Shown one piece after another: positions 33,765 to 35,105 of a DNA stretch of 64,000 nt. The first letter of the stretch is position 1, and the number at the start of each line of letters is the position of its first letter. The translations under genes were made by a program, and so were the position numbers. The stretch is from positions 1 to 64,000 of the forward strand of contig JAEOTP010000034.1 of assembly GCA_016839765.1 (NCBI GenBank), given 5' to 3'. Origin of the DNA: Promethearchaeota archaeon. Its GTDB lineage: Archaea; Asgardarchaeota; Lokiarchaeia; Sigyniarchaeales; SOKP01. The notes under the pieces were generated by a model that was not told where the DNA came from, made no database searches, and saw only the letters and a list, made by a program, of their open reading frames with translations.

Positions 33765-35105
33765 ATGAGTAATAAAGTAAACACACTTGCTGTAATTGGG
33801 CTAAGTTGGGGAGATTAACGATGCAAAGAGCACGTAACCCTATATGAAGGAAAAGGAAAGTTTGTTGACTTCTTAGCCCAAAAATCTGATATTGTAGTAA
33901 GATTTAATGGCGGAAATAATGCAGGGCATACTATTAATGCCAATGGAATTAAATATAAATTCAAATTAATACCCTCTGGTGCTCCATTAGAAAAAGAATT
34001 AATAATTGGAAATGGATGTGTCGTTGATCCGAAGGTTCTTCTTGAAGAAATCGAAAATTTAAAAAAATTAAATAAAAAAGTTAACCTTAAGTTAAGCTCA
34101 ACTGCTCATGTTATTTTCCCATTTCATCGAATATTAGATGACTTAGAAGAAAAAACTAAGGGCGAATATAGTGCTGGAACTACAAAAAGAGGGATTGGCC
34201 CTACATACTCTGATAAAGCAGCTCGATGGGGTATAAGGATTTTTGATTTAATTTACCCTGAAATTCTAAAAGTAAAACTAGAGAGATTATTTAAAATTAA
34301 AAAGACATTAATTAACGTGTATGAGCCAGGCTGGAATATGGATTTTAATTCTGTTTATGAAGAATATAAAGATTATGGTGAAAAATTAAAGTCTTATGTA
34401 ATTGATACTGCATATTATTTGAATAAAGCCATAGATGCGGGTAAGAAAGTTGTTTTTGAAGGTGCTCAAGGCAGTTTATTAGGCATAGACCATGGAATGT
34501 ATCCTTTTGGAACCTCATCAAATGCTAATGCTTTAGGAATATGTGCTGGGACTGGAATTCCACCTAAAAAGATTGGGAAATTATATGGTATTATAAAGGC
34601 ATATACATCCAGAGTAGGAGAAGGTAGTATTCCTACTGAATTATTTAATGAAATCGCAGAAAAAATTAGAGAACAAGGGCACGAATATGGAACTGTTACA
34701 GGAAGGCCAAGAAGAGTAGGATGGCTTGACCTATTTAACATTAAATATAGCTTAATGATAAATGGAATTGATAGGATTATAATAACATTATTAGATGCTT
34801 TACAAGGTATTAATCCGATAAAAATCTGTACGGCCTACGAATTAAATGGAGAAATTCTTGAGAGCTGGCCAATTCAACATGAGATTATTGAAAAATGTAA
34901 ACCGATATTTAAAAAATTTAATGGATGGAATGAACTTCCCTCTGAAGAATGGTCAGAGATGGCAAAAAAAGGGTATGATGCACTACCTGAAACAATGAAA
35001 ATTTATATTCAAGCCATCAAAGAAGAATTAAGAACAGACATAGCAATGATTTCTATTGGACCAAATAGAAATGATACTATCGTTTTAGAAAAAGAAATAT
35101 TTTAA
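33765..35105 (+). CDS. purA: Adenylosuccinate synthetase, interrupted by a 30-nt putative intron: join(33765..33813,33844..35105), 436 aa
   Basis: ATG 33765 gives [16 protein letters not shown][[10 protein letters not shown]][10 protein letters not shown], then [64 protein letters not shown] in the same frame. The ORF track captured only 34317-35105. Confidence 0.95.
33814..33843 (+). other. Putative bulge-helix-bulge (tRNA-endonuclease-type) mRNA intron
   Basis: Central 4-bp helix GGGG(33808-11)/CCCU(33838-41) with 3-nt bulges AGA(33812-14) and AUA(33842-44). Cutting after the second nt of each bulge yields TGG GGA G|AT GAA GGA AAA GGA AAG = WGDEGKGK. The intron forms its own hairpin. Confidence 0.8.

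Follow-up and report, generated by a model that had tools for sequence, protein, structure and literature searches.

The adenylosuccinate synthetase gene (purA) in the 64,000-nucleotide stretch of Promethearchaeota DNA analysed here (the window) raises the question of how an interrupted reading frame can encode an intact enzyme and, if the interruption is removed in the manner of a tRNA intron, how the two halves of a cut mRNA would be kept together in the absence of a tRNA body. The frame that opens at 33765 contains a TAA after 17 codons, and 30 nt further on an intact frame continues to 35105. This gene is the single purA match in the genome (3.3 Mb, 96% complete, 30% G+C, found in marine sediment runs). 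Its neighbours, judged by eye from their translations, are ordinary, comprising a TldD/PmbA-like pair (29885-32615) and a phosphate transporter with its regulator (36378-38021), and no tRNA genes were found in the 64-kb window. The features of the locus are as follows.

33765 to 33813, plus strand: purA exon 1, from the ATG to the first base of the catalytic Asp codon (16 codons plus 1 nt); the junction is pinned by relatives
33796 to 33805, plus strand: 5' arm of the distal exon-exon helix, in the codons Ile-Gly-Leu-Ser
33808 to 33811, plus strand: exon strand of the 4-bp central helix H, GGGG
33812 to 33814, plus strand: 5' bulge, with the predicted cut after its second base (33813/33814)
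33814 to 33843, plus strand: 30-nt putative intron (30-32 nt in relatives) with the in-frame TAA and an inner hairpin
33838 to 33841, plus strand: intron strand of the central helix H, CCCT, pairing with GGGG
33842 to 33844, plus strand: 3' bulge or loop, with the predicted cut after its second base (33843/33844); no outer helix adjoins it in the window's allele type
33844 to 35105, plus strand: purA exon 2, the remainder of adenylosuccinate synthetase (joined product, 436 aa)
33872 to 33881, plus strand: 3' arm of the distal exon-exon helix, in the codons Phe-Leu-Ala-Gln

The alignment of the exon 2 product to the E. coli enzyme (1ade) begins at residue 14, which places the break inside the codon for Asp13, the catalytic base of adenylosuccinate synthetase. 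Only removal of the insert restores the P-loop motif, with the catalytic Asp13 and His41 intact. At its borders, GGGG (33808-33811) pairs with CCCU (33838-33841) to form the central helix, each strand of which is followed by three bases, and excision of 33814-33843, which corresponds to a cut after the second base of each three-base bulge, yields the restored P-loop. The junction in the window's genome could slide by two bases; in relatives whose intron starts with C, T, G or AA, the sole possible junction, G|AY, is the predicted one.

These relatives were drawn from a comparison set of 125 related purA loci, 37 with the insert and 88 without it, together with 7 outgroup genes; five short loci were omitted from the purA tree. 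The central helix is paired in 98.8% of cells among 20 distinct alleles and in 59 of 60 cells in the other 15 alleles. The inner intron helix, which closes the 5' bulge, has undergone two-sided changes (U-A in 12 alleles versus A-U in 8) and retains three of three pairs in the other 15 alleles. The Gly codon at the 5' bulge is GGA in all 37 intron-bearing genes versus 33 of the 88 intronless genes. Based on these features, the insert is probably an intron of the tRNA type (bulge-helix-bulge, BHB) located in an mRNA. The outer exon-exon helix at the 3' site is absent from the window's allele, where the local duplex has an energy of about 0 kcal/mol, and the splice motif is therefore relaxed and bulge-helix-loop-like instead of a strict canonical BHB.

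Three other explanations of the insert were rejected. Contigs assembled from the runs of other studies cross it without gaps, which excludes an assembly artefact. Read-through of the stop codon, or a 10-residue insertion in the protein, is incompatible with the lengths of 31 and 32 nt in relatives, which shift the frame. A group I or group II self-splicing intron would need a catalytic core of hundreds of nucleotides, in contrast to the 30-32 nt found here.

The intron, which is 30, 31 or 32 nt long, was identified in 30 genomes from four genera of a single family and also in 7 metagenome contigs; the metagenome search pattern excluded both helix arms and needed an intron starting with AY, and thus under-samples one type of allele, the adjacent-helix type described below. 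In a pattern scan of all prokaryotic genomes, chance matches were abundant, and the true matches among those listed were only Promethearchaeota-like. A class-wide search (26 genomes) did not find the intron outside the window's family, and its three outside-family matches proved to be chance upstream sequence. Two records titled Hodarchaeota and Hermodarchaeota (L036 and L104) have purA 5' ends that match exactly those of G013 and G020, two genomes of the genus to which the window belongs, so that record titles are unreliable for the taxonomic range of the intron. Another purA (L259, in G060) has an apparent internal deletion and a frameshift after about codon 50, which is not an intron.

What would hold the exons together is suggested by a second structure, first pointed out in a first-pass annotation made from the sequence of the window. 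As stated there, 33796-33805 is the exact reverse complement of 33872-33881 over 10 bp, and Watson-Crick extension is impossible at both ends. The Gly-Leu-Ser codons of exon 1 thereby pair with Leu-Ala-Gln codons 28 nt downstream. The same annotation considered chance to be unlikely, and this proved to be correct, although the number of pairs alone is not unusual: perfect stems of at least 10 bp within 100 nt are frequent genome-wide (0.35 per kb), whereas just 10 such stems with at least 5 G+C in the outer 10-mer occur in 3.32 Mb. When the protein was kept and its codons were redrawn from genome usage, a perfect helix of at least 10 bp between exon 1 and exon 2 arose in 0.05% of 200,000 recodings (p ~5e-4), and a duplex as stable as the observed one arose in 0.7% of 3,000 recodings. 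The helix also forms in the fold of lowest predicted energy, where its pairs have probabilities of 0.62-1.0; the full 141-nt region is only modestly more stable than its shuffles (z -1.66). In this fold, the helix lies away from the splice sites, where it closes a multi-branch loop that has 2 nt on its 5' side and about 30 nt on its 3' side, and it persists in the predicted mature mRNA. The 10-bp distal helix is thus confirmed as real and beyond chance.

The comparison of intron-bearing and intronless genes connects this helix to the intron. All 22 intron alleles that encode the Ser of the motif by AGT keep the distal helix, with duplex energies of -10.7 to -18.3 kcal/mol, compared with means of -5.4 and -4.9 kcal/mol in the two intronless groups. 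The inner eight pairs are intact in 21 of these 22 alleles versus 2 of 88 intronless genes, and all ten positions are paired in 17. Ten Watson-Crick pairs are found in just 7 alleles, the others having G-U pairs or a frayed end, and the perfection of the helix emphasized in the first-pass annotation is therefore incidental. Within the columns of the helix, 97% of cells are paired, slid controls being far lower, and RNAalifold recovered 8 of the 10 pairs unprompted; it also predicted a small hairpin in exon 2, the support for which is one-sided only. Two intronless genes, L258 (G129) and L209 (G074), possess the full distal helix and are candidates for recent precise intron loss; L258, which also retains the GGA codon of the intron alleles, looks like such a loss.

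The pairing is accompanied by a narrow choice of synonymous codons. In the 5' arm of the 22 Ser-AGT intron alleles, Gly is GGG in 21, Leu is YTA in 22 and Ser is AGT in 22, and in the 3' arm Leu is TTA and Ala is GCY in all 22; the 24 intronless AGY genes have GGG in 7, YTA in 9 and TTA in 4. These intron alleles occupy about 10 separate branches on which the arm codons are fixed while synonymous sites elsewhere are near saturation, and codon-invariant columns downstream are rare (Gly 1 of 24, Leu 0 of 18, Ala 0 of 10). Intron interiors have likewise diverged while the distal arms remain paired. No two-sided compensatory change was seen in the distal helix alignment, where nearly every arm change keeps the pairing as G-U; none is expected, because the amino acid fixes one side in 9 of the 10 pairs. 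These patterns support the maintenance of the distal helix specifically in intron-bearing alleles, with constraint on synonymous codons, and agree with the earlier suggestion of a maintained splicing substrate. The related proposal that RNA structure constrains the codons of GLSWGD holds for the synonymous choice (GGG, YTA, AGT) and fails for the amino acid: Ser in place of the usual Gln is present in all 88 intronless genes of the family and in the 7 outgroup genes, and its presence is thus not explained by RNA structure.

A reading of the insert as a lesion, or as a sequence passed by read-through or frameshifting, with the helix as a chance pairing or an mRNA element unrelated to splicing, is barely credible. 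AT-rich perfect stems are indeed common in the window's genome, but this is the sole purA of a 96% complete genome and its downstream frame is intact. Moreover, the insert occurs at the same position in 30 genomes of 4 genera, its lengths of 30, 31 and 32 nt exclude a read-through peptide, and the helix is absent from 86 of the 88 intronless genes.

The remaining 15 of the 37 intron-bearing genes, all from one genus, encode the Ser by TCG or TCC and do not form the distal helix (mean -3.9 kcal/mol). The expectation that the complementarity would separate intron-bearing from intronless orthologues is therefore borne out among the intronless genes and not among these 15, and this particular 10-bp helix is not required family-wide. 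Instead, these Ser-TCN alleles form an exon-exon helix adjacent to the central one, with a mean of -10.0 kcal/mol, versus -4.7 in intronless TCN genes, and the Asp codon is GAC in 15 of 15. The adjacent helix stacks directly on the central helix, leaving a 2-nt bulge, and is mutually exclusive with the distal helix. A compensatory switch from U-A to C-G, involving the Leu and Glu codons of the adjacent helix, is found in 4 sequences on two branches; part of this helix is explained by the Ser-TCN and Glu-GAR codons alone. When the better of the two helices was scored, 13 of 13 intron-bearing clades exceeded their nearest intronless sisters, although the sisters are partly nested and these are not 13 independent tests. 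The alignments indicate that an adjacent clamp has replaced the distal one in a single genus, and what intron alleles need is therefore apparently some exon-exon helix and not the distal helix's own sequence.

Linkage could also produce such an association, if recombination spreads or maintains the intron along with flanking exon sequence and the chance helix of a founder is carried with them. The distribution of the intron is patchy (parsimony gives 13 changes, the alternative being 1 gain with 24 losses), and synonymous identity between the intron and the 3' arm shows a mild excess, 0.46 against a background of 0.36. In one gene (L156), the first 60 nt are 92% like L183 and 70-75% like its downstream sisters. 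However, identity is at background just upstream of the 5' arm (0.43 versus 0.39) and after the 3' arm (0.37), the intron interiors have diverged whereas the arms are still paired, with nearly all arm changes retaining G-U, and the second genus has built a different helix with a compensatory pair. Hitchhiking of this kind is accordingly improbable as the source of the helix. As for L156 (G077) itself, its leader, exon 1 and intron are similar to those of the L183/L194 lineage, whereas the remainder of the gene groups with other alleles; possibly, intron and clamp were exchanged together by recombination, or the assembly is chimeric.

A possible splicing mechanism can be proposed from the enzymes of the host, which encodes two paralogues of the tRNA-splicing endonuclease EndA, alpha- and beta-like (two PF01974 genes), in addition to the ligase RtcB. 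One PF01974 gene possesses the catalytic Tyr/His/Lys pattern by eye, and the other lacks the His. The two-subunit EndA would cut the relaxed motif twice, which would leave a 5' exon fragment consisting of 49 coding nt and the leader without local pairing to exon 2. Until ligation by RtcB, the clamp could then keep the 5' exon base-paired with the 3' exon, in the role that the body of a tRNA plays for its halves. On present comparative evidence, it is likely that the exon-exon clamp, kept by selection on synonymous codons, tethers the exon halves between the EndA cuts and RtcB ligation in this way.

A role in folding, without any role in ligation, is a less favoured and rather doubtful alternative. 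Here the selected helix would close the junction, stabilize the central helix and block competing pairs of the G-rich exon, and it is similarly doubtful that the distal helix stands in for the missing outer helix. The probability of the central helix is 0.85 compared with a recoded median of 0.51, and the mutual exclusion of the two exon helices, with the adjacent one stacking on the central helix, would also fit. The effect is not significant, however, and the predicted folding role of the clamp appears weak, because 20% of recodings form the central helix nearly as well without it; the distal helix also lies about 30 nt from the 3' site. Tethering and folding guidance are inseparable by sequence data, and the clamp may perform both roles together.

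Other introns bear on whether tethering by exon helices extends beyond this site. Two relatives, L155 (G064) and L169, carry a second insert of 31 nt directly after the His41 codon, about 80 nt downstream of the first intron, and thus have two 31-nt introns in one purA. The His41 insert, which shows the predicted geometry, combines a 4-bp central helix and two 3-nt bulges with an exon-exon helix of its own, which in L169 comprises 8 perfect pairs. In the window's genome, exon-exon pairing exceeded recoded controls (p<0.05) in 5 of 7 mRNA introns, which were classed as likely on the basis of restored motifs, versus 2 of 25 unrecognised candidates. The five are those of purA, a mevalonate kinase-like gene, a Rag-like GTPase gene, EF-1alpha and fwdA; the introns of dnaG and the hydrogenase small subunit gene showed no excess of exon pairing over recoded controls. 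Likely tRNA-type introns in coding genes of the window's genome (G000) are located at C96:+37300, C57:+103567, C57:-13946 and C46:+18683, and further likely ones are in fwdA on C46, dnaG on C17 and pfk on C22. The pfk insert gave no motif fit in a narrow search and was omitted from the pairing scores, and an intrinsic structure scan for other introns was insensitive and returned mostly false joins. We see an even chance that a general exon code operates in this Asgard family, such that the coding sequence around endonuclease-spliced mRNA introns has to provide an exon-exon helix as a substitute for the tRNA body. This helix would be distal (forming a three-way junction) or adjacent, and selection for it would act on synonymous codons as far as 38 nt from the junction. 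If so, the helix would decide where mRNA introns can persist.

In the searchable literature, the tRNA endonuclease is documented to cut coding introns in a single archaeal gene, cbf5, and an intron in one 5' UTR, and a 2020 paper likewise lists only cbf5 and the HVO_1309 leader as mRNA cases (PMC7714728). The cbf5 pre-mRNA intron of Desulfurococcales and Sulfolobales (Watanabe 2002; Yoshinari 2006; Yokobori 2009, PMC2738675) is the closest system. It resembles the purA intron in being short and coding, in its relaxed BHB motif and hetero-oligomeric EndA, in the position of the cut directly after the first base of a catalytic Asp codon, and in lineage-specific loss (PMC2738675). In contrast to purA, it belongs to another gene and phylum, and its splicing was shown by cDNA, whereas that of purA is only inferred; the accessible part of the text describes neither a distal exon-exon helix nor selection on codons to maintain one (PMC2738675). 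The intron in the 5' UTR of HVO_1309 of Haloferax volcanii is similar to that of purA in that an mRNA is cleaved by EndA at a BHB, and differs in lying in an untranslated leader, without a coding constraint or a broken frame (PMC7714728).

Relaxed BHB or bulge-helix-loop (BHL) motifs are known from archaeal tRNA introns (PMC12397907), including those of an Asgard census, a 2026 preprint that reports a two-subunit EndA in most genomes and does not mention mRNA (bioRxiv 10.64898/2026.10.13.758758). A literature search covering few subscription papers found no paper on Asgard mRNA introns or exon clamps. The tRNA introns and the purA intron share the 4-bp helix, the cut after the second bulge base, a length of about 30 nt, the participation of exon sequence in the motif, and the same enzymes. 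The difference is that the tRNA body holds the tRNA halves, whereas in purA the coding sequence must do so within the genetic code, for which two alternative solutions appear. The two interchangeable exon helices are thus a candidate answer to how a cut mRNA stays together without a tRNA body, and they supply a rule for finding such introns. Splicing would thereby influence which codons are used in the prokaryotes most closely related to eukaryotes, and the intron would account for the erroneous calling of a truncated purA in about a quarter of these genomes.

In the splicing of XBP1 and HAC1 mRNA by the Ire1/RtcB system, exon-exon pairing reportedly keeps the cut exons in contact. That system is similar to purA in the protein-catalysed removal of a short mRNA intron and, in animals, in RtcB-type ligation; it differs in its nuclease and stem-loop signal and in being regulated by stress, and the analogy is functional only. 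The purA clamp would add a mechanism, and not a new system, to the mRNA introns of this lineage.
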